A stretch of 64,000 bases of DNA, taken from IMG/VR virus record IMGVR_UViG_3300010346_000241, positions 1-64,000 of that record; one strand, given 5' to 3'. The notes under the pieces are model-generated. The model made no database searches. It was not told the origin of the DNA and saw nothing but the letters and a program-made list of their open reading frames with translations. A program made the position numbers and the translations under genes. Below, in pieces: positions 1-60,100 of the stretch (positions are counted from its first letter, which is position 1; every line of letters starts with the position of its first letter). The DNA is from a virus (lineage: Duplodnaviria > Caudoviricetes).

Positions 1-192
1 AAGGTCTTCTATCGACATTCTAATAGCACATCGAAAGATATCTTCTATGTACAACCCGACAAAAGTTATCAAGACTTCGTCGTATCTGGTAGAAATCCAG
101 CTTCGTTCATCGTCCCATCAAATAGAGCTCAACTTGTTGATGTATCTTGGCTTGAAGATCAGGGCTTCGTGATAGGATCACCCCCCCCTATA
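1..192 (+). CDS. 3' end of paralogue 1 of the tandem beta-helix-like protein array (5'-truncated by window)
   Basis: Frame 1 is open from base 1 to TAA 190-192 and ends ...RAQLVDVSWLEDQGFVIGSPPL, matching the C-termini of the next three genes. Confidence 0.8.
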
Positions 193-26416: not shown

Positions 26417-27103
26417 TCATATCTTGAAGAAACAAACTATACAGTTGTATGTATATATCCTCTTGGTCTCCTTCTTAGTTATCTTCCACTTTGTCACTTC
26501 AAAGTTTGTCATGAAGTAACTATATCTAGGATTATCCAAGATAAGAAGATTGACTTGGTCATTCTTCACTGTTGGTACTACACCACTGAAGAGATACATT
26601 GTATACTTGTCTCCAACATTGACATACTTTGCCCCGTCAGATGCTTTAAGGTTTACATATGTATCCCACTGAGGAGTTGCTTGGAAATCTTTGTAAGCTG
26701 ATATAACTCCTTCTGGGTCGTTCATGTATCTGAATACTGAATTTATAGTAAGCATTATATCACGATAACGAGCATCTGCTACATAGTCCGATACAGAAGT
26801 CTTTCCGAACACTAACAGACCTTTATCTGGTATATAGCACTCTGCGAACTTTTCTATTCTCTGACTCTCTTCTACCTGTTCTAACGATGCTAATACATCT
26901 ACCAGAAAGATTTGCTCATTGAACTGATCGAACTCTGGAATGATTGCATCCATAGTGTAACGAATGTAGTTGTTACCTACTATAAGATACGCATACATCA
27001 CACCACTTATAGTGTCCTTGTGGAAGTATAATGCGTCTCCTGCCTTACCCTTCATCAAGGCTATAACATTCTTCATAGCCTCGAGTATCTCTAATATACT
27101 CAT
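26417..27103 (-). CDS. Hypothetical protein translationally coupled to the polymerase exonuclease subunit
   Basis: ATGA overlap with the upstream gene; 228 aa. Confidence 0.7.
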   Translation of the reverse strand: MSILEILEAMKNVIALMKGKAGDALYFHKDTISGVMYAYLIVGNNYIRYTMDAIIPEFDQFNEQIFLVDVLASLEQVEESQRIEKFAECYIPDKGLLVFGKTSVSDYVADARYRDIMLTINSVFRYMNDPEGVISAYKDFQATPQWDTYVNLKASDGAKYVNVGDKYTMYLFSGVVPTVKNDQVNLLILDNPRYSYFMTNFEVTKWKITKKETKRIYTYNCIVCFFKI

Positions 27104-29097
27104 ACCTCTACTACCTCTCTACTATAACAATTCTCCTCTCTAGACTCTATCTTATTATAGAACTCCGAGAAAGTTCTGACTTCGTCATTGAATGGGAACT
27201 GCTTATGTGGATACTCAGTTCTCTCATTCATTATCTTCTGCTCCCACTCTGGAACAAATGGAGATGTCTGAGTAGTACTGTTCGGTACCTTATAGAATAG
27301 ATATCTTCCCTCTGTACAATGGAGATCAACCTTACCTCTCGGATGTACAATATCTGAGAAGTAAGTTATGACATCATCATACATCTCTTCATATGAAGCA
27401 AGGTGGAACCATCTATGATAGAACTCAAGCCACTGATGAGACTGATAATCCTCAAGGAACTGTCCTTCTCTCTTATACTTGTAATCTTCTCTTGCAAATC
27501 TATTCTCGTTCTTATATACCTGAGTTGGTATAATGATACGAGCAATGATTGTATTAGCCGCAAGATTGAGTTCTGACGTGATAGACGGATAAAGGCTCTT
27601 GTAGTCATAGTCATTCAGATTTCTGAATACCATGATAGGCTTGCCGTTTACTATCATCTTAGAGTAAGGTCCGAGCTTTGTAGGATCTGATACCCAAGCA
27701 CCTGGGAACTTCGTCTTAGTGTTGTTCTTGTTGGTGTTGTTACCCATTACAAAGCCCTGTCTCCAGTACGACTTGAAGGCTCTGTTCTTCAGATATACTG
27801 TCTGACGATATATCTTACTGATACGAGTGTTGTTCAGAAGAACGTTGTTGTATGCATTACCTACATCGTTCACTTTGTTCTCGATACAGTACTGTGAGAT
27901 AACGTCCATGATATTGTATAACACGAATGTTAAGTAATCCTTCTGAGGAAGATCTTCAAGCTTCTCACAGATGTGATGATAGTCAAGTTTACCGAAGCCT
28001 ACTGTCATCTCTGCTATGCTGTCGAGTCTGAAGTTAGGGATCGCTGAACGTCCCTTACGTCTACTAGCAAAGTGAATTAACTGATCAAGATATACAGTCT
28101 TACTGCTTATCTTACAGAAGTCATTTCTCTCAGCAAATTCATTGAAGTTCTTATCATCGATGAAGTAACTTACTTCCTTATACTTGAAGTCTGGATGACA
28201 CATTACCCTTTTGGGGTCCATATTCAACTTCTTACATCTCTCGATGATGTATGGAATATCGAACGCCATGTTCCATGCCAACAAGAAGTCTGGTTCAAGT
28301 TTGTTAATGACATTGAACAGAGTCTTGATTAACTCCTTCTCATCAGTATACATAACTGTCGAGAACTGAAGAGTATCTACACGATACTTCTTAGCTTTCT
28401 CTGGTCCGCCAACTGACTTTATGATGAAGTCTTTAGCTATAGCTTCGAACTTACCGCTATTCAATAACTTCTCAAACTCCAGACATAAGGGATTGTATGG
28501 ATCTCTGAGAAGCAAAGTGAATACAGTCTGAGTTCTGTCGTCTATGAATGTCACCGCATTGATTGGACACTCACCTGGTTCTACGAAGTCGCCCTTCGCA
28601 GTTCTTGAGTCAACCTCGATATCGAGATAGCTTTTGTTTATAGGTCCGAAAGCATTCTTATAAGACTCACCAAACTGGAATCTGTAGAAGTCTTCGATGT
28701 TCATATCAGAACCCATAACTCTTACATGCTCATGAAGTCTCTGATTGTTTCTGTAGTCACCATTCTCTGCATTGTTATCAAAGAATGTCTCATTACCAGT
28801 AGCTTCTGCTATGCTCTTAAGAAGCTTTCTATATGGAACGGTTATCTCGTCACACTTCTCTTTCTCTATGAAAGCGAGATTGTAGTCTACGAATACTTCG
28901 TTCTTTATTCTATACCAAGTATACTCTGGATTCTCTATTGTCTCAATGAACTTCTCACCAGTAACATTGTCTTTGATTACAAGATCTATTGAGTCTGGAA
29001 TGTCGGTGTAACTATTCTTACTCCTATTAGGCCTATGATAGATTGTCTGCAATAACGATAAATCGTATTGCAATGGGTAGTTTCCTATCTGTATCAT
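27100..29097 (-). CDS. Split family B DNA polymerase, N-terminal subunit (3'-5' exonuclease plus motif A)
   Basis: ExoI LDIEVD, ExoII WNMAFD, ExoIII YNIMD, motif A DYKSLYPSI; lacks motifs B and C; true start ATG 29097 after AAAGGAGG. Confidence 0.9.
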   Translation of the reverse strand: MIQIGNYPLQYDLSLLQTIYHRPNRSKNSYTDIPDSIDLVIKDNVTGEKFIETIENPEYTWYRIKNEVFVDYNLAFIEKEKCDEITVPYRKLLKSIAEATGNETFFDNNAENGDYRNNQRLHEHVRVMGSDMNIEDFYRFQFGESYKNAFGPINKSYLDIEVDSRTAKGDFVEPGECPINAVTFIDDRTQTVFTLLLRDPYNPLCLEFEKLLNSGKFEAIAKDFIIKSVGGPEKAKKYRVDTLQFSTVMYTDEKELIKTLFNVINKLEPDFLLAWNMAFDIPYIIERCKKLNMDPKRVMCHPDFKYKEVSYFIDDKNFNEFAERNDFCKISSKTVYLDQLIHFASRRKGRSAIPNFRLDSIAEMTVGFGKLDYHHICEKLEDLPQKDYLTFVLYNIMDVISQYCIENKVNDVGNAYNNVLLNNTRISKIYRQTVYLKNRAFKSYWRQGFVMGNNTNKNNTKTKFPGAWVSDPTKLGPYSKMIVNGKPIMVFRNLNDYDYKSLYPSITSELNLAANTIIARIIIPTQVYKNENRFAREDYKYKREGQFLEDYQSHQWLEFYHRWFHLASYEEMYDDVITYFSDIVHPRGKVDLHCTEGRYLFYKVPNSTTQTSPFVPEWEQKIMNERTEYPHKQFPFNDEVRTFSEFYNKIESREENCYSREVVEV

Positions 29098-29117
29098 TGT
29101 AAGTCCTCCTTTAATCG

Positions 29118-29161
29118 TAATCGTCCCAAACACGTACGATTACTTGATTATTTAATGGTTG
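29118..29161 (-). promoter_or_regulatory. Shared polymerase leader element: AACC-N6-TA promoter plus hairpin UAAUCGU-ACGUGUUUGGG-ACGAUUA
   Basis: 43/44 identical to 57073-57116, upstream of the other polymerase subunit. Confidence 0.85.
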
Positions 29162-29178
29162 CTACTACTTTTAATAGC

Positions 29179-29213
29179 TACAAGATAACGCAATACGGTA
29201 CAAGATAACACAA
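29179..29213 (+). repeat. Two 15-bp direct repeats TACAAGATAAC(G/A)CAA with 20-bp period
   Basis: 29179-29193 and 29199-29213. Confidence 0.7.
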
Positions 29214-30400: not shown

Positions 30401-30407
30401 CAAGTTA

Positions 30408-46629: not shown

Positions 46630-47340
46630 CTATATAATATCCTTTGTCTTTCCTGCGAAAGTTCTACCCTTCCTTACCACATTCTTCTGTTGTTTGAGTT
46701 CCTGTATTCTATCCATTGGTGCAGATGTAGCTCCCTCCAATGGTCCTATAGCAGCAAGCATAGAGTTTGCATACATAGCGCCATTGAATGAGTTCATCAT
46801 ATTGGCTAAGTATATAAACTCTAAGTCTGTTATATCACTCATACATTCTGTATTGCCTACTATCAAAGTTGCTCCAGCCTGTTGATATCCTGTATGGTTT
46901 ATGATAGTAGGAAGTATCTTAAAGATCTTGTTCTTTGGATATCTGTCCGAAACAACAGGAAGAGTGCTGTTCATTCTCATGCAATCGTTCTCTACAACGA
47001 ATACATTTTGTCCTTGCGCAAACAGACAATTAGATGCTATCTTCAGTGAGTTAACGAACTGATAGTGTCTGTCATTAGGAATGAATATGGAGTCATCCAT
47101 ATTCGCTCTATAGTTCTTAAGCTCTAATGTCATAAAGTAATCTATCTTACGCTTAACAAGTACGTTAGCGTTACTAGGTCTTGTTTTGGTTCTATATTCT
47201 CCCCAATAGTGAATTGTACGTTCTTCATACATCTCAGTCTCTGGGAGAACCCAACTTAAGTTGAGATTGAAGTTAAGTTTGATAGGACCAGACTCAAAGA
47301 TAGTATCGACCATACGATACATCTGGTTGTTATTGGTCAT
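46630..47340 (-). CDS. Hypothetical protein
   Basis: 236 aa; preceded by a TACA-N6-TA promoter variant (47355-47366). Confidence 0.7.
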   Translation of the reverse strand: MTNNNQMYRMVDTIFESGPIKLNFNLNLSWVLPETEMYEERTIHYWGEYRTKTRPSNANVLVKRKIDYFMTLELKNYRANMDDSIFIPNDRHYQFVNSLKIASNCLFAQGQNVFVVENDCMRMNSTLPVVSDRYPKNKIFKILPTIINHTGYQQAGATLIVGNTECMSDITDLEFIYLANMMNSFNGAMYANSMLAAIGPLEGATSAPMDRIQELKQQKNVVRKGRTFAGKTKDII

Positions 47341-52064: not shown

Positions 52065-54209
52065 TTAGTTGTTTAAGTCCTCTGGCTTCTCAATGATTTC
52101 GAAGAGAGGTTTAGTCTGTACTTCACTCTCTACCTTCTCTGCCATGTAAACCTGCGGCTGAACATGAGCAAACATGTCGAGCTTACTAGGTGCTGTCTTT
52201 CTGAAGGAGATTGGTTTGTACAGTGTACGAGCAAGGTTCTCATACTGCATTGTAACCTGAATGCTCGGATTGGCCTCAAGAGCCTGACGAAGAGTGAGTA
52301 TTCTATACTCCTGATCTGGATAGTCCCAGTCTGGCTTGAGAAGAATATCGTCTATAGCTCTGATCTGGTTCATGATTATGATCTCTGCATGGACGGAACG
52401 GATACCACCCATACCACAATCAATAAGCTTGTTGATGAAGTCTCTAAGAATCTCATGTCTTGTATAGTTACAAGTCTTTGTCTTGAGATTGATGATTGAC
52501 ATGACTTCTTTCAGATTCTTACCAAGGTCATCATTATAGATACCTACACCAAAGACAGGTATTCTAGACTGCTGAAGATCTGTGATAGGAATGAAGATGT
52601 CTGTCTCATCCTCATACTGCTTAGAATTGATTAGCTTACAGAACTCATCCTGGAGATACAGACACTCATTGTTAGTACCATGAATCTCTATAACTTCTCC
52701 CTCTGGAGTTATGATCTCGAACTGAGTGATGTAATCTCTGAGTATATCGAAGTCGTCGCCATCACTATCGCTATCGCTCATAGATACAACTGTTTCTGTA
52801 TCTACGCTGTCTCTATCGATATGGATCAGCCACTTCTTACCACCCAGGAATTCGCTGTTTACATAGATATCCTCATCGTCGAATGTAAAGAACTGATCGA
52901 ACTGCTCCTGAGGAATACTCCACTCAATCTTACTAATCTTAGCCTCAAGAAGATGCTTAGCAGACAGCATAAGCTGAGTGAGAGTCTGTGAGATTAACTC
53001 TGCGGCAATCTTACCAATGTTTACGATGCGATTGCCCATAAAGAGATTTCCATAACACTTCCTACAAATGCCCTGTCCTCTGGCTGCGCTTGCGCAAGTG
53101 ATGGGAGATCTCAGATAGATTGTCTTACCCACAAGATCATGTCTAAGAGTATTGAGACAACCAGTGTTATACTCCATTCCATCAGGATGAAGTCTGAAGT
53201 ATCTATCCTGATACATCTCAATATTCTCTTCAGTAAGAGTTACTTCAACGAAGTTCTTGGTATGACAATCATAGTCAGGATCAACGTTGCCGAACTCATC
53301 TGTATAGAGATTCGTATCTATCTGGTTAAGACCAAGTACTCTGGCGAAAGCACCTGAATATGCTGTGTTCTGCTTGGACAGAATCTGAGCCTGACGTCCA
53401 ATTCCTGCTTCAGCGACCATCCATTCAAAACGGTTAAGACCACCTCTCATATAAGAAGCGTCTATAGAGTGTGGGAAGATTCCTCCCTCACCGTTAGGCT
53501 TGATACCAATGTTAGAGATCATCTCTCTAAACTGCTTTGGCTTTACGCCTACCTTAGCCCTGAAAGCATCTGCAAGACAGTGGTCTCTTCCAATCCACTT
53601 CTTACTCTCAAGGATAAGCTCAATGATTCTATTACAATCCTTCATTGCTTCGGCGTTCATCTGATCGGCAGGAAGGTTTGAATAGTCCTTATGCATCAGC
53701 TCATCAAACTCAGGACAAGCATTAGCCATGAGAATGAAGTCCTCATGATTGATTGAGTTGTTGTAGAACAGAGCAAACTTTTCAGCGAACTTAAGAGTCT
53801 TATGATTATTATAGATCATCTCATTAAGTCTCTTAGGATCCATCGTTTCTCTGTTAGGTATGATAGCGTACTTGTTGATGTAGTTTGCTATAGCCTTCTT
53901 ATCTATTCCCTTCTTACAGAAGAACAGATGCCAAGGCTTAAGTGTATGTCCTGCTTCAAGAACGAAGCCCCACATACAAAGATTGACCATAAGATCTGGT
54001 AATGTGAGTCTTACACTCTTCTTATAGTCTCTGAATGTGACTGTTACTTTAGTCTGCATTAGCGGTTGTTCGACGTTATCTGTAATCAGATTCTGCAGAC
54101 CTATACGATAGTCATTAAGTTTTGTGTTGTCGAGATTTTCGGCTACAATCTCAACAGGTTGATTCTGAAGTAAGCATGTCCATACTCCATATAAATCGGT
54201 TCGTGTCAT
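52065..54209 (-). CDS. Multisubunit RNA polymerase beta'-like subunit, C-terminal half (non-virion RNAP)
   Basis: Bridge helix SKQNTAYSGAFARVL, Zn site LRSPITC...ICRKCYG, trigger loop NIGKIAAELISQTLTQLMLSAKH, VHAEIII. Confidence 0.9.
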   Translation of the reverse strand: MTRTDLYGVWTCLLQNQPVEIVAENLDNTKLNDYRIGLQNLITDNVEQPLMQTKVTVTFRDYKKSVRLTLPDLMVNLCMWGFVLEAGHTLKPWHLFFCKKGIDKKAIANYINKYAIIPNRETMDPKRLNEMIYNNHKTLKFAEKFALFYNNSINHEDFILMANACPEFDELMHKDYSNLPADQMNAEAMKDCNRIIELILESKKWIGRDHCLADAFRAKVGVKPKQFREMISNIGIKPNGEGGIFPHSIDASYMRGGLNRFEWMVAEAGIGRQAQILSKQNTAYSGAFARVLGLNQIDTNLYTDEFGNVDPDYDCHTKNFVEVTLTEENIEMYQDRYFRLHPDGMEYNTGCLNTLRHDLVGKTIYLRSPITCASAARGQGICRKCYGNLFMGNRIVNIGKIAAELISQTLTQLMLSAKHLLEAKISKIEWSIPQEQFDQFFTFDDEDIYVNSEFLGGKKWLIHIDRDSVDTETVVSMSDSDSDGDDFDILRDYITQFEIITPEGEVIEIHGTNNECLYLQDEFCKLINSKQYEDETDIFIPITDLQQSRIPVFGVGIYNDDLGKNLKEVMSIINLKTKTCNYTRHEILRDFINKLIDCGMGGIRSVHAEIIIMNQIRAIDDILLKPDWDYPDQEYRILTLRQALEANPSIQVTMQYENLARTLYKPISFRKTAPSKLDMFAHVQPQVYMAEKVESEVQTKPLFEIIEKPEDLNN

Positions 54210-54269
54210 TGTCCTCTACCTCCTTAGTATTGGATAGTTTCAGTATAGGTAAACCTCTACTGTCGCTCC

Positions 54270-54279
54270 TATAATATAC
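54270..54279 (-). promoter_or_regulatory. Early-type promoter of the RNAP beta'/helicase operon
   Basis: Minus strand GTATATTATA followed by a leader hairpin. Confidence 0.65.
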
Positions 54280-54297
54280 AACGAAAGGCGTGATTGA

Positions 54298-54320
54298 GAG
54301 GGTAGGCAATGCCTACCCTC
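54298..54320. terminator. Terminator hairpin identical to 46118-46140
   Basis: GAGGGTAGGCAATGCCTACCCTC. Confidence 0.8.
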
Positions 54321-54327
54321 CATTCGA

Positions 54328-54774
54328 TTAGTCTCTGTGAGAGATGTCTGCAGCCTTAAGCATCTTAGGCTTATTGACATTCTTGAGATACTCCTTCTGG
54401 CCGATTCTTGCAACCTTCTGAGCTCTTGAGTTGTACTTCTTCTCAATAGCTGCGAGAAGCTTACGCTCCCTGATACGGTTGACCTTAAGAGCCTTCCAGA
54501 GAGGATCGTTGTTATCCTTAGCAAGCTGAAGAGCAGCCATAGTTGTACGTCTGCTGATGTCGTCGTTCTTGTTAAGTCTAACAAGTGTCTTGCGGTTAGT
54601 GATGTTCTTCTTCTCGAGAAGAGCGATCTCTGCTGATTCGAAGAGTGCTTTCTTTTCCTCATCGCTGCAGTTAGCGAAATCATCGTAGAAGAAAGCTTCC
54701 ATGAGTGCGTCCATGTCTACGTCGATAGCCTCAACTTCAGGACTTACTCCAGTTGACTGTGAATATATTCCCAT
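54328..54774 (-). CDS. Small head protein with acidic propeptide-like N-terminus and basic C-terminus
   Basis: ALME/ALFE/ALLE sites; AACT-ATTATA-TA promoter at 54829-54840; strong codon bias. Confidence 0.55.
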   Translation of the reverse strand: MGIYSQSTGVSPEVEAIDVDMDALMEAFFYDDFANCSDEEKKALFESAEIALLEKKNITNRKTLVRLNKNDDISRRTTMAALQLAKDNNDPLWKALKVNRIRERKLLAAIEKKYNSRAQKVARIGQKEYLKNVNKPKMLKAADISHRD

Positions 54775-54897: not shown

Positions 54898-57054
54898 TTA
54901 CAGAGATACAATGTTTGTGAAGTTCACATTCTTCTTCTCTCGTCTATCTATACCAAGAGCTTCTACTGGGAATGTAGCAATGTTATCATTGATAACCTGA
55001 GTGTAGTTGATGAATGGCTTAACCCACTCTGGTACATCTTCTTCAGAAAGTATAGCGATGTTACCACACTCTCCCTTGAAGTCCTTTGATGCGAGCATCT
55101 TTACTGCTCTCTCATACACATCTGGGAAAGTATCTTTGATTTGATCAATATTCTTCTCAGTCATGTCTGTCTTGATGATCAGAACAGTGTTACGTGTAGT
55201 AAGGTCGATGATTGGCTCATTGTCTCTCCTGAGTAGATTATACGCTACAGCCGCCTTGATGGTATACTGACCCATAGGATCTGCATAACCAGACGATGCC
55301 TTTATACGCTGAGGTTTGAAGTAGCTCTTATCACCCGCCATGAGAGAGTCGTAGATCATCTTCTCAAGAGCAGCAAGCTGTTTGATGATATCTATCTGAG
55401 AGATCTGCTCTGCATTGAGCACGAAGTACCATAGGATTTCTTCAATTCTTCTCGCTGTCTTCTCAGGTATTCCAACCTTACGGATAGGCATACCCTTAAC
55501 ATCAAGAGCTTCCTCAAGAGGAATGAATGCATTCTCCTGACGTTCCTGATAGCAACAATAATTTTTCTTTACCATTGTAACCAGTGCCTGCTTGAGCTGG
55601 AACTCATTCTTGAGTATGAAGAATGACTTACGTATCTTACCATCTGCTGTCTTGATAGCGTTAGAGTTTGTAGAGTACCTTGTCATATAGTCAATCGACA
55701 GACGACCCATTATATGAGCAAGTACATTGATAAGTGAACAACGATATCCTGCTGTAGGTCCTACAGAATTATCATCACTCAGAGTCTGCTGAAGATCGAT
55801 AACTTCATCCTTGAAGAAGTCATAGTCATACGAATGAACATCTGCTCTCCATACCTTACCCTCATTGTTCTGCTCTATCTCCTTAATCCTCATCGGAATG
55901 GAGTAAGTCTTATCAAGAAGATAACGATACCATCCATCGAAGCTAATGAAGCAAGAGTCAGTATCTGTAAGGATAGATACAGAACGAACCATGTTCTCTG
56001 CTCTGTCGAGACGATCCATATACTGATGACCATAGTATACATACTCCTTAACGAGTTCATATACTTCATCAAGCGCTGCTTTGATCTGATCTGCAAGATG
56101 ACTAGCTTCTTCTTCAGTCATCGGGTTATCAGTATCCTTAAGAGCATCATAGATGTCCTTAGCATTAGGAGTCTTGTTCGGATCCATGAAGTGTATCGGA
56201 AGCAAACTGAGGAAGTATACAACCTTATCCATAACGTACTTATTGTCGAAGAAGTAGAAGAGGTTGTTCTTAAAGAAGATACGATTAAGGTCTTCCTGGT
56301 CAAGCTGATTGATGATATCCCATACAATCATCAGATCCTTCTCTGAAGGTCTGTAGTAGAAACCGCATGTACATATAAGCTGACAGAATACATCGTATGC
56401 TGATACTGGCATATCGATGACATCATAGTCATTATACTTACGAGTAGGTCTCTCACGACGAACGTTGTTAATGAATTGTACAATCTCATTGAGTGAACCA
56501 AACTTAACGTTGTTGTTAAGAGTAGCCTCAAACAAGAGAAGTGCTGTAGCAATACAGTTCTGACCCTGCATTGTGATAGACGATGCAACGTTAACGTTAT
56601 AGAAGATAGATGTATGATTACCACTAGCTCCATAGATAGCATTTGCAGATACCTTCTCTGAAAGCTGAAGGAGGTTGTACTTCTCATACATCTCTGATCC
56701 CTTAGGATATTTAAGCATCATTCCCTTATACTCAGCTCTCTTAGTCAGGAACTCCTGAATGAGATCTACATATGGGTTAGGGCAAGTGCCATGCTTCTTG
56801 AAGAGAACACCAGATACAGTTACTATCGGTTCTCGTTCTATGATATAATTCAGGACGTTGTAAAGTGTAGTGTCCTGCTGATTGTGTGTATAATTATTGT
56901 CCAGTTTCACTGGTGTGTCAGAAAATCTTTTAGCTATAGAGTAATCTATAGCTGCATCAATATCTGCATCGAACAGTCTTGGGAATGACAGTCTCAATGC
57001 TTCTTTCATTTCAGTCTTATAGATGGTAAGACCTTTGTTTGATATAGGTATCAT
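54898..57054 (-). CDS. Split family B DNA polymerase, C-terminal catalytic subunit
   Basis: Motif B QLSEKVSANAIYG, motif C LTDTDSCF, KKNY, VKG; lacks exonuclease and motif A. Confidence 0.9.
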   Translation of the reverse strand: MIPISNKGLTIYKTEMKEALRLSFPRLFDADIDAAIDYSIAKRFSDTPVKLDNNYTHNQQDTTLYNVLNYIIEREPIVTVSGVLFKKHGTCPNPYVDLIQEFLTKRAEYKGMMLKYPKGSEMYEKYNLLQLSEKVSANAIYGASGNHTSIFYNVNVASSITMQGQNCIATALLLFEATLNNNVKFGSLNEIVQFINNVRRERPTRKYNDYDVIDMPVSAYDVFCQLICTCGFYYRPSEKDLMIVWDIINQLDQEDLNRIFFKNNLFYFFDNKYVMDKVVYFLSLLPIHFMDPNKTPNAKDIYDALKDTDNPMTEEEASHLADQIKAALDEVYELVKEYVYYGHQYMDRLDRAENMVRSVSILTDTDSCFISFDGWYRYLLDKTYSIPMRIKEIEQNNEGKVWRADVHSYDYDFFKDEVIDLQQTLSDDNSVGPTAGYRCSLINVLAHIMGRLSIDYMTRYSTNSNAIKTADGKIRKSFFILKNEFQLKQALVTMVKKNYCCYQERQENAFIPLEEALDVKGMPIRKVGIPEKTARRIEEILWYFVLNAEQISQIDIIKQLAALEKMIYDSLMAGDKSYFKPQRIKASSGYADPMGQYTIKAAVAYNLLRRDNEPIIDLTTRNTVLIIKTDMTEKNIDQIKDTFPDVYERAVKMLASKDFKGECGNIAILSEEDVPEWVKPFINYTQVINDNIATFPVEALGIDRREKKNVNFTNIVSL

Positions 57055-57072
57055 AGTTTTCCTCCTTGTTCA

Positions 57073-57116
57073 TAATCGTCCCAAACACGTACGATTATTT
57101 GATTATTTAATGGTTG
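57073..57116 (-). promoter_or_regulatory. Shared polymerase leader element, copy 2
   Basis: 43/44 identical to 29118-29161. Confidence 0.85.
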
Positions 57117-57159
57117 AGTGTTCTCTAATAGTATACAATCGTACCAATTTGGAGGGAGG

Positions 57160-57171
57160 AACATCTTAGTA
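57160..57171 (+). promoter_or_regulatory. AR9-like promoter of the giant ORF
   Basis: AACA-TCTTAG-TA. Confidence 0.7.
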
Positions 57172-57195
57172 ATCTGACAGAAAGGAGGGAACCTT

Positions 57196-60100
57196 ATGCT
57201 CAATAAGGTAGCTCAATATGCTAAGAACGTTGGTAAGTCAGTCATCTATTCTGCTGCTGATGTAGCAGGAGAGATGTTTACCAACCCTAAATCATTCATT
57301 GAAGAGAACAATGAATCCTTAAAGGGCGTGTATAACTCGGTGCGAGACTATCGTACCACTTTTAAACGTGTCAAGGATAGGATTCAGAAGAGCGACGTTT
57401 ATGTAGCTGCTTCTGTAGGTGTAAACTCACTCATAGAAGATATCAAAACAGGCGACTGGTATGCTAAGGATCGTGAAACTAGACTCACTGAGAAGTTTGG
57501 CGGACTTGGTATCGGCGACGACTGGGATATGGATGGAGCTGAGTTCGACTGGGATAAAGAAGGTATGGATGTAAGCGATGGTGACAAGATCATTGCTACA
57601 GCTATCAAGAAGAATACTAAGCTCAATACGATGATGACTACTGATGCTATTGTCACTGTAGGCAAGGCTCAGATAGATGCATCTAGAGAGAATACTACTC
57701 TTCTCTTTATGCAGAACGAAAAGCTCATGGGATCAGTTAACAATGGATTCGAAAGAATCACTAGACTACTTTCTGATTCGGCTAATACCAATATCAAGAA
57801 CCAGCAGAAGACTTGGGAGAAGACTGCCAAGTTCTATGAGAAGATCGAGAAGAACACTAATACTATAGTCGCTCAGCTCGATGAACTGCTTAAGATGCAG
57901 AGAAATCTGTATGAAGACCAGCGTCAGAGTCAGAAGAAGGGGAACAAAACCACTGCCACTAGCGTAGTCAATGCTAATGGTATGCTTAACCTCAGAGATT
58001 ATAAGAATGCCATCAGAAAGAACCTCAGTGACACTATCACTGAAGCTACTGGTCTTTCTATGGATTCGTTTAAACTCGGCGATGGTAATACTCTCGCTCT
58101 CATGTTCGCTAACCCGATGAGAGACCTTACTCAAGGTTTTCTTAAGAAGAACATCAACAAGACCTTCAAAGCTTCAGCAAATAATCTGAATGAGGTTCTG
58201 GGTGGTCTTGCCTATACTCTCTTTGGTCAGTTGAACAACATGAAACTCAATGGTACTGGAATGAATAAACTTATGGGATCCATCTTCGGTATGAAGATGG
58301 ATAGAGAAGGCAACTTCGATACTTCTAAGTACACTAAGGGGCCAGTTCCATTCGACGGTATCACTAAGAAAGCTATCACTGAAGTTATGCCACATCATCT
58401 CGCTAAGATTGCTTCTGCATTGACAGGAGAAGACGAGGAGATCTTCGACTATAACAGTGGTAAGTGGACTACTAAGAGAGCTAAGTATAACGAGATTCTC
58501 AAGAATGAGAAGAATAAAGCTATGTCTGCTATGGGAGACTTCTTCTCTTATATGAAACAGGGTGTTGGAGGAGACTTCAACAAGATCATGAAAAGTAAGC
58601 AAGACGCAGATAAGTTCATCAAGGGACTCACTGCATTTGCTAATGCTTTCTATGAAAACCCAGACTTCAATATGCTTCGTAATCCTAGAGAGTACGGCAT
58701 TGATGAGGATGTAGCTAAGTTCATTCAGAAGAGTTTCCAGGAGACTAAGTATAACTATCGTTACACTAAGAAGAGAGACTGGAGATATGGTAATGGTACA
58801 GCCGTAAAGGACAGAGAACAGCAGAGAATTGCTGGTCTTGATTGGTCTAAGGGCAATCCTATACTGACTAGTAGAGACGATGTAACAGTTGTTCTCGCTA
58901 ATACTATCAAGAGTGTCTTCGAGTCTCGTAAGAGAAATGCAGACAAGAGAAAGGACATAGGAAACAATCCTCTGTCACTTGAACTTCTGTTTGCTTCAGA
59001 GGGTATCGACATCAATAAGAACAGCGGAGAATGGCTCGAACGCTTTAAGAACAAGCACGGTGATTATGATCAGAAGTCTATAATGAACTCACCTACTGCT
59101 AAGGCTATAGCTATGACTGCTGATCAGTACGGTTATACTATCTTCGATTACCTCAAGAATATCAAGCTTGACCTTGCTGGAATCAGAAGCAATGGCCTCT
59201 TCTCTATCGCACTTGGTGGTGGAGATCTTAATGATGCTAATACTTCTAACTCGTCAGAAATGTCATTTGAAGTGAAGGAGAAGTATGATTGGAAACGACT
59301 CCAACACGAAGGCGATAAACGTAAGCGTCATGATGAAGAAGCATTCAAAAGACGTTATGAGGAAGAGCAAGCTAAATGGGAGCAGAACGAAAGATATCGT
59401 AAGTCTGGAGATAAGCGTTATAATAAGAGACTCAGACGTCCTAACAGAGTTGATCTTGATGCTGATAATGTAAGAGGTCAGTTTGGTTCTATCCTCAATG
59501 ACATCACTGAAGAGTTCAAGAGAGATGAAGTTGAGCGTCAGAAGCAAGAGAAAGCTAATCAGAAGGACATGTTCGATGTACTTGAAGAGTGGGGCCTTAT
59601 TTCATCTGATGAAAAGAAAAATGCTCAGGCTGTCAAGTATGATAAGGAGAAAGACCTTAAGGAACAGATGAAGGCTGCTCAGGGTGGTAAGGCTAAGCTC
59701 TTACTTGCTAGAGCATACATGAAGAGTATTGCAGATAAACCTTGGCAGTATGCTACAGATGCTATGGTAAGTACTGAGGCTCTGATTCATGATATCTTCT
59801 TCAAGCATGCTTTCAAGATGAAGAATAACGACGGTGAGACTGTAGAAGAAAAGGGCCTGTTCGGAATGCTCCAGGAGAGCTTCAAGGGCGGATTCGATTC
59901 TCTTACAAATATGATCGGCACTAAGCTCGAGAACTTCTTTACCAAGGAAGATGGATGGTGGCAAAAGAATGTCGTTAAGAAGATCTTTGCTCCAGACAGT
60001 TTCTTTGGTCAGCTTAAGGAAGCTATTATCGGCAAACCTGATGGTGAAGGTTTCAGAACTGGTGGTGTTACTGGTTCTTTATTCGAAGCTCTTAAAAGAA

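Follow-up and report, generated by a model that had tools for sequence, protein, structure and literature searches.

Giant phages of the AR9/phiKZ kind transcribe their genes with multisubunit RNA polymerases that they encode themselves. The family-B DNA polymerase of these phages is divided between two unlinked genes. To our knowledge, no regulator or operator has been described for these RNA polymerases beyond promoter motifs. In one genome of this kind, the two DNA polymerase genes are preceded by almost the same short stretch of DNA, and the locus raises the questions of what this stretch consists of, what has kept it the same before two separate genes, and at which level, DNA or RNA, it might be read. 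A site of this type is short and amenable to experiment, and so gives a way into replication-gene control in a phage clade that is uncultured and comes from rumen, gut, and sludge samples. The stretch of DNA analysed here, called the window, is 64,000 nt long and corresponds to bases 1-64000 of a 229,448-bp IMG/VR virus record (this genome, or G000 among its relatives). Coordinates are those of the window unless given as genome coordinates.

The two polymerase genes and their neighbours

Both halves of the polymerase are encoded on the minus strand. The N-terminal/exonuclease (exo) half, of 665 aa, occupies 27100-29097, matches PF03104 (8.6e-10) and phrog_3011 (6e-52), and is 31% identical to AR9 g132. 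The palm/thumb (pol) half, of 718 aa, occupies 54898-57054, matches PF20286 (7.7e-29), PF00136 (2.2e-12), and phrog_2927 (1e-55), and is 27% identical to AR9 g152. The closest cultured relatives are AR9 and PBS1, which stand at 27-31% identity and have an identical split of the polymerase. RNA polymerase (RNAP) beta-like subunits are also encoded in this genome. By direct reading, the start codons are the ATG at 29097 (exo half) and the ATG at 57054 (pol half), both on the minus strand; the GTG at 29133, which had been listed as the ORF start of the exo half, is not the real start.

Directly after the pol half lies a gene for a 148-aa helical protein (54328-54774, minus strand), which is 73-84% identical in relatives whose pol halves are 74-76% identical. 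This protein was considered as a regulator and dropped, as it has a weak match to the virion structural family phrog_26909 and a fold of low confidence (pLDDT 55). An ORF at 54240-54683 that overlaps its gene is spurious. A 228-aa ORF (26417-27103, minus strand), for which no family match was obtained, is syntenic in all relatives and has a 4-nt overlap with the stop of the exo half; the AR9 gene at this position encodes a DnaQ-like exonuclease.

Anatomy of the repeated leader

Pairwise comparison within the window finds a direct repeat on the minus strand, identical at 45 of 47 positions, with copy A (29115-29161) before the exo half and copy B (57070-57116) before the pol half. An earlier sequence-only reading of this DNA had described a 44-bp repeat matching at 43/44 (29118-29161 and 57073-57116), and re-alignment returns the same 43/44. 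Two sites in the window match the 25-nt hairpin core, versus 0.00 expected and none in 100 shuffles, and both are the polymerase leaders; the whole 229,448-bp genome contains no further match.

Read on the minus strand, each copy has the same order of parts: the motif AACC-N6-TA, five bases, an 8-bp stem with an 11-nt loop, a linker, a Shine-Dalgarno (SD) sequence, and the ATG. The palindromic hairpin of the exo leader (29117-29143) is closed by a G-C pair and folds, as the hairpin alone, at -9.4 kcal/mol; that of the pol leader (57072-57098) is closed by an A-U pair and folds, again alone, at -7.5 kcal/mol. Both mismatches between copies A and B are the two sides of this eighth, closing pair, which is compensated. 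The stem UAAUCGU/ACGAUUA and the 11-nt loop that the earlier reading had proposed are both present, and the stem is longer than proposed by that eighth pair. The SD sequence AAGGAGG of the exo half (29105-29111) lies 5 nt past the stem and 7 nt before the ATG; the same sequence of the pol half (57061-57067) lies 4 nt past the stem and 6 nt before the ATG. Identity between the copies does stop right after the stem, as had been noted, and the linker differs.

The full 75-nt leaders fold no more stably than shuffled sequences (z -1.5 and +0.3), and a search with the covariance models of Rfam 15 returned no family at the leaders; its two matches, at chance level and to unrelated lncRNA models, lie elsewhere.

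Late and early promoter motifs

The motif AACC-N6-TA lies at 29149-29160 in the exo leader and at 57104-57115 in the pol leader, both on the minus strand. In AR9, the late promoter consensus is AACA-(6N)-TA/G, and its last base is the start site (PMC5312081). Both leaders match this consensus, which predicts transcription starts at A 29149 and A 57104. The motif recurs in this genome: AAC[A/C]-N5-ATA stands ahead of 29 called genes, for the most part at a distance of 32-46 nt from the ATG. In the polymerase leaders, this distance is 61-63 nt, and the surplus length is the hairpin. A C at the fourth position (AACC) is common to both polymerase leaders and about 10 other sites in this genome. 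The sequence-only reading had taken AACC-ATTAAA-TA for a promoter, and this view is upheld by a motif class that precedes about 29 genes and equals the AR9 late consensus (PMC5312081).

The motif and its recurrence both agree with an AR9-type late promoter. The likeness extends to motif, spacing, and the occurrence of many copies just upstream of ribosome-binding sites; the differences are that the fourth base is C at both leaders here and that the starts are predicted from the motif alone. AR9 expresses both polymerase genes continuously ("continuously expressed") from an early and a late promoter (PMC5312081). These AR9 promoters are in tandem, and both halves here likewise have an early-like motif upstream of the late one. 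That of the pol half (57128-57137, minus strand) belongs to the TGTATAYTAT / TATATAYTAT class and is a putative early promoter; that of the exo half (29172-29183, minus strand) is a weaker candidate, which is better matched in the relative G002. The early-type class GT-TATATAYTAT-AGAG (or TGTATAYTAT) is found 50-95 nt upstream of about 25 genes and resembles the AR9 early consensus; other such sites lie, e.g., at 30406, 50450 (minus), and 54280 (minus), and one precedes the RNAP beta-like gene at 52065-54209. With this arrangement, the hairpin would be part of both early-type and late-type transcripts.

Conservation and loop inversion in relatives

In the two close relatives G001 and G002 (94-99% protein identity), the module is present before both halves, and the sequence upstream of it and between stem and SD has diverged. 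The closing stem pair of the pol copy is G.U in G001 and G-C in G002, and in the G002 pol copy one loop position has also gone from G to A and one stem pair from U-A to U.G. Contigs from other samples that align to 56700-57500 have no differences in 57036-57242, as compared to about 4% in the coding flanks. A scan of IMG/VR with the exact core returned only the small clade of this genome, plus unrelated coding matches; a scan with a stem-only pattern was swamped by chance palindromes and was discarded.

Relatives at intermediate distances were obtained by protein searches of Logan and ENA assemblies (halves 60-83% identical), and their leaders were then read. The element is present before the exo half in L140 (83%), L141 (75%), L142 (67%), and L145 (66%), and before the pol half in L137 (76%), L138 (75%), L139 (74%), and L143 (63%). 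Changes in the arms are compensated, and include U-A to A-U (L145), G-C to A-U (L139), a paired insertion (L143), and C-G to U.G (L169).

The loop behaves differently from the arms. In L137 and L138, it is the reverse complement, with one change, of the 11-nt loop of this genome. Loops of the inverted type are found in L137, L138, L139, L141, L143, and L169 (a 47% relative), and loops of the forward type in G000, G001, G002, L140, L142, and L145. In either orientation, the loop is conserved at a divergence where the flanking non-coding sequence cannot be aligned. The alignment of relatives' upstream regions, which had been proposed as a check on the sequence-only reading, agrees with it on the sharing of the element, on within-genome identity, and on stem covariation, and also shows that loop orientation is not fixed. 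Site-specific recombination or programmed inversion was set aside as an explanation, as the arms are only 8 bp, the spacer is 11 bp, and no link to a recombinase was found.

Two sequencing runs yielded both the pol leaders L137 and L138 (inverted) and the exo leaders L142 and L145 (forward). If L137/L142 and L138/L145 are each one phage, a pairing defined by the shared run only, then a single phage has opposite orientations before its two halves. Oppositely oriented leaders are complementary over about 25 nt, and the two mRNAs could pair in trans and thereby couple the fate or location of the subunit messages. The leaders of the two runs, and possibly those of the more distant genome G006, have the opposite orientations that such pairing would use. 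However, this genome and its close relatives have the same orientation before both halves, so their loops are not complementary, and the G006 element is nearly self-complementary, which makes its orientation call weak. Pairing between leaders is very improbable as an explanation.

The compensated arm changes count in favour of another explanation, in which the element is a structural RNA leader. A 5' hairpin beside a strong SD would stabilise the message or set the rate of translation, only the stem would matter, and the loop would be a passenger that flips by hairpin-mediated inversion. 5' stem-loops are known as mRNA stabilisers in Firmicutes. Pairing in the stem is maintained through compensated changes and through wobble pairs on the sense strand, which number 5 across the relatives, versus 1 A.C, although these events are too few to test. 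In the wider family, most exo-half leaders have some palindromic hairpin between promoter and SD, with differing sequences, and flanks of the element are directionally conserved. Against this explanation, conservation of the 11-nt loop equals that of the stem, whichever way the loop is oriented, in relatives 63-83% identical in protein. The family-wide count of G.U versus A.C, taken over about 110 leaders, is 10 versus 14, and the hairpin calling behind it is noisy, as the caller picks chance stems in AT-rich leaders; the whole leaders, as described above, fold no better than shuffles.

Copies beside other replication genes

A third copy of the element lies at 114958-114978 of this genome, where 14 nt match the arm-plus-loop core exactly (0.002 expected by chance, own calculation). 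It is reversed relative to its gene, its stem is decayed, and it abuts the late promoter of a gene for a Rad50/SbcC-like ATPase of about 917 aa (locus L309; genome 112174-114927, minus strand), the true start of which was missed by the crude gene call. The N-terminus of the product is of the Walker-A SMC/Rad50/SbcC type (AAA_23, AAA_27). The block that contains the third copy is conserved in G001, and the sequence upstream of it has diverged. As a promoter-like motif, with a spacing of 5 nt, immediately precedes the block in G001, the third copy may be the decaying relic of an older leader. Its retention of the loop sequence without the stem speaks against a structural RNA leader in which the stem alone matters. 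The helicase leader of this genome speaks for that explanation, having a hairpin with similar arms and a different loop at its predicted 5' end. On balance, a purely structural role is unlikely, yet it is a rival to be reckoned with.

Additional copies are found in relatives. G006 is a complete genome of 230,692 bp whose exo half is 61% identical to that of this genome; in it, a third copy, identical over 23 nt to the G006 exo leader, lies between the early-type and the late promoter of a DnaB-like helicase gene (PF20307). All three G006 sites also share a 3' flank that is conserved in one direction. A fixed absolute orientation of the element on the genome was also considered; it holds for the three G006 sites and fails in G000 and G001. 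In G003-like genomes, a short core is common to the exo and Rad50-like leaders. The element had been read as exclusive to the polymerase, a view that is not supported, given the copy beside the Rad50/SbcC-like gene here and the related palindrome before the DnaB-like helicase gene in G006.

Concerted evolution of leaders and other duplicated modules

The exo and pol leaders of G006 are about 90% alike over about 60 nt, from late promoter to SD, and both are unlike those of this genome. The differences between the two cluster at the central palindrome; they can be explained by an inversion with a single further change or by three substitutions. In G000, G002, one G003-like genome, and G007, out of 24 non-redundant genomes having both leaders, the two leaders resemble each other more than the 95th percentile of pairs taken between genomes. 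The split of the polymerase is ancient, as it is present in AR9, and for this reason the 44-47-nt leader identity must, on these comparisons, be regenerated by gene conversion, i.e., by concerted evolution, rather than be a relic of the split. In the present clade, the exo leader was probably copied over the pol leader, given that pol leaders with the inverted loop are found in L137-L139 and L143. Judged by the leaders of this genome and its relatives, identity is held by concerted evolution in at least two clades.

The proposal that the two unlinked halves share a selected cis-element is sustained by its presence ahead of the two genes in relatives whose proteins are as little as about 60% identical, and by leaders that are near-identical independently in the 61% relative. 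It is likely that the module is a selected, shared cis-element of replication genes, whether or not it acts as DNA.

Other promoter-leader modules are duplicated in this genome as well, and for this reason duplication by itself is not special to the polymerase leaders. A 141-nt repeat of 99% identity, outside the window at genome 120607-120747 and 153145-153285 (loci L017 and L018), includes the late promoter, a hairpin of the leader, and the SD, and extends over the first 15 codons of two genes whose products (868 aa and 371 aa) otherwise differ and are of unassigned function. An identical 33-nt module of promoter and leader start is found at genome 100408-100440 and 135798-135830 (L019 and L020), in inverted genomic orientation, before genes for a 947-aa protein with a weak ClpP/crotonase-like match and a 395-aa protein (phrog_2921). 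Within the window, a 99-nt repeat of 99% identity (1479-1577 and 2615-2713) precedes tandem paralogues and is a reused terminator-promoter-RBS module.

These pairs (141 nt, 99 nt, and 33 nt) raise the alternative that the polymerase leaders are a by-product of recombination, in which promoter-leader modules are copied between genes, the palindrome is a hotspot of recombination or template switching, and identity has no specific regulatory meaning. Loop inversions are an expected mutation at palindromes and agree with this alternative. However, the element remains at the same two orthologous positions across deep divergence and is more conserved than its flanks, extra copies lie beside replication/recombination genes in two genomes, and leader identity arose independently in G006. 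An origin as a mere by-product has little chance of accounting for the element.

Comparison to known regulatory elements

The best-studied likeness is the operator of gene 43 in T4 and RB69 (PMC3014915), likewise a hairpin that lies near the ribosome-binding site in the 5' leader of a gene for a family-B DNA polymerase. By analogy, the polymerase, perhaps only in its assembled form, could bind the RNA hairpin on both mRNAs, repress translation, and keep the subunits in proportion. The hairpin upstream of the ribosome-binding site of a family-B polymerase gene (PMC3014915), its presence before both halves, their upkeep as identical by concerted evolution, and the covariation of the stem are all in keeping with such autogenous control. 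In contrast, the T4 operator overlaps the ribosome-binding site and depends on specific loop bases, which are decisive in T4 and RB69 (PMC3014915), whereas the present element stops 4-5 nt before the SD and its loop is reverse-complemented in relatives and opposite in leaders from the same runs. The present element also stands before two separate polymerase genes and beside other replication genes (the Rad50/SbcC-like gene and, in G006, the helicase gene), and binding of the polymerase to it is hypothetical. AR9, the nearest studied phage, has an annotated early promoter and no comparable hairpin in the leaders of g132 and g152. From the gp43-type RNA operator favoured by the sequence-only reading, what stands is a leader hairpin near the ribosome-binding site that is shared by both halves; conserved loop bases read as RNA and overlap with the ribosome-binding site are not found, and the element is not exclusive to the polymerase. 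A translational operator of the gp43 kind is improbable here.

The RegA regulon and the MotA box middle promoters of T4 are alike in another respect, namely that one short element is common to the leaders or promoters of several replication genes and places them under joint control. Mot boxes lie at about -30 of host-polymerase promoters. RegA sites are unstructured and AU-rich and overlap the AUG (PMC3014915). Unlike either, the element described here is a palindrome between a phage-polymerase promoter and the SD.

The flipping of the loop also has a known counterpart in non-coding DNA. In the small hairpin-associated inversions of chloroplast spacers, a short loop flips repeatedly and the inverted-repeat arms stay. 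The difference is that here the flipped loop is conserved whichever way it points, which implies that it is constrained and not neutral.

The element is of a known kind, being a short element common to replication genes, like the RegA sites, Mot boxes, and gene 43 operator of T4. Its setting among promoters of a non-canonical phage RNA polymerase, the split polymerase, the concerted evolution of leaders, and the flip-tolerant centre are new. A literature search on the leaders of split jumbo-phage polymerases found nothing.

A possible mode of action

The explanation preferred here, tentatively and at a little less than an even chance of being right, is that the module regulates a set of replication genes in cis and that a sequence-specific factor recognises it as DNA. 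The repeat would be a promoter-leader module, in which an AR9-type late promoter for the non-virion RNA polymerase is joined to a 27-nt palindrome; in the predicted transcript, the palindrome would take up about +7 to +33 and lie immediately before the ribosome-binding site. The set under its control would comprise both polymerase halves and the Rad50/SbcC-like ATPase gene in this genome, and both polymerase halves and the DnaB-like helicase gene in G006. A phage-encoded factor would read the element as double-stranded DNA or as an extruded cruciform and tune joint transcription, and gene conversion between leaders would keep both subunits under identical control. We infer that the element acts as DNA, that such a factor exists, and which way it would act.

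A DNA-level reading appears most likely because the centre is conserved in either orientation and because one site persists without its stem; an RNA-binding protein that reads the loop is, by comparison, less likely. Some observations weigh against a reading as DNA. The compensated stem changes (closing pair G-C/G.U/A-U, L145, and L139) and the excess of sense-strand wobble pairs over A.C described above lean toward an RNA or single-strand structure, and the directionally conserved 3' flank in G006 would fit a transcribed, directional element. The inverted yet conserved loop provides a clean natural test of DNA-level versus RNA-level control.

A more specific version of shared control is that a single trans factor, which might be the assembled two-piece polymerase or a different replisome protein, recognises the palindrome in the leaders of the two halves and of further replisome genes and so holds them in proportion, with gene conversion keeping the operators identical. 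This version is unlikely as it stands. If such a trans-factor circuit is true, it would be the first operator and feedback circuit to be described for genes that a jumbo-phage multisubunit RNAP transcribes, and the first mechanism for balancing a split phage polymerase.

Other repeats and short palindromes of the genome

Several further repeats and palindromes were noted. The stems of intrinsic-terminator-like hairpins at genome 123942-123965, 197994-198022, and 207431-207457 begin AATCG...CGATT, like the arms of the polymerase leaders, and are followed by a T-run. Both copies of an 83-nt repeat of 98.8% identity (window 46718-46800 and genome 167615-167697) fall inside coding regions, which are on opposite strands. 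A 136-nt terminal direct repeat of 98.5% identity joins window 1-136 with genome 229313-229448, in a record classed as linear without end repeats.

The 6-bp palindrome CGTACG was considered as a stand-alone operator and rejected: it has seven sites in the genome, and the fourth intergenic one, before the major head protein gene, looks unrelated. Its rarity is not specific, because many 6-bp palindromes are avoided genome-wide. CACGTG, CCCGGG, CCGCGG, GCCGGC, GCGCGC, and TCCGGA are absent from the genome, and ATTAAT occurs twice versus about 154 times expected in the whole genome, which suggests strong avoidance of restriction sites.
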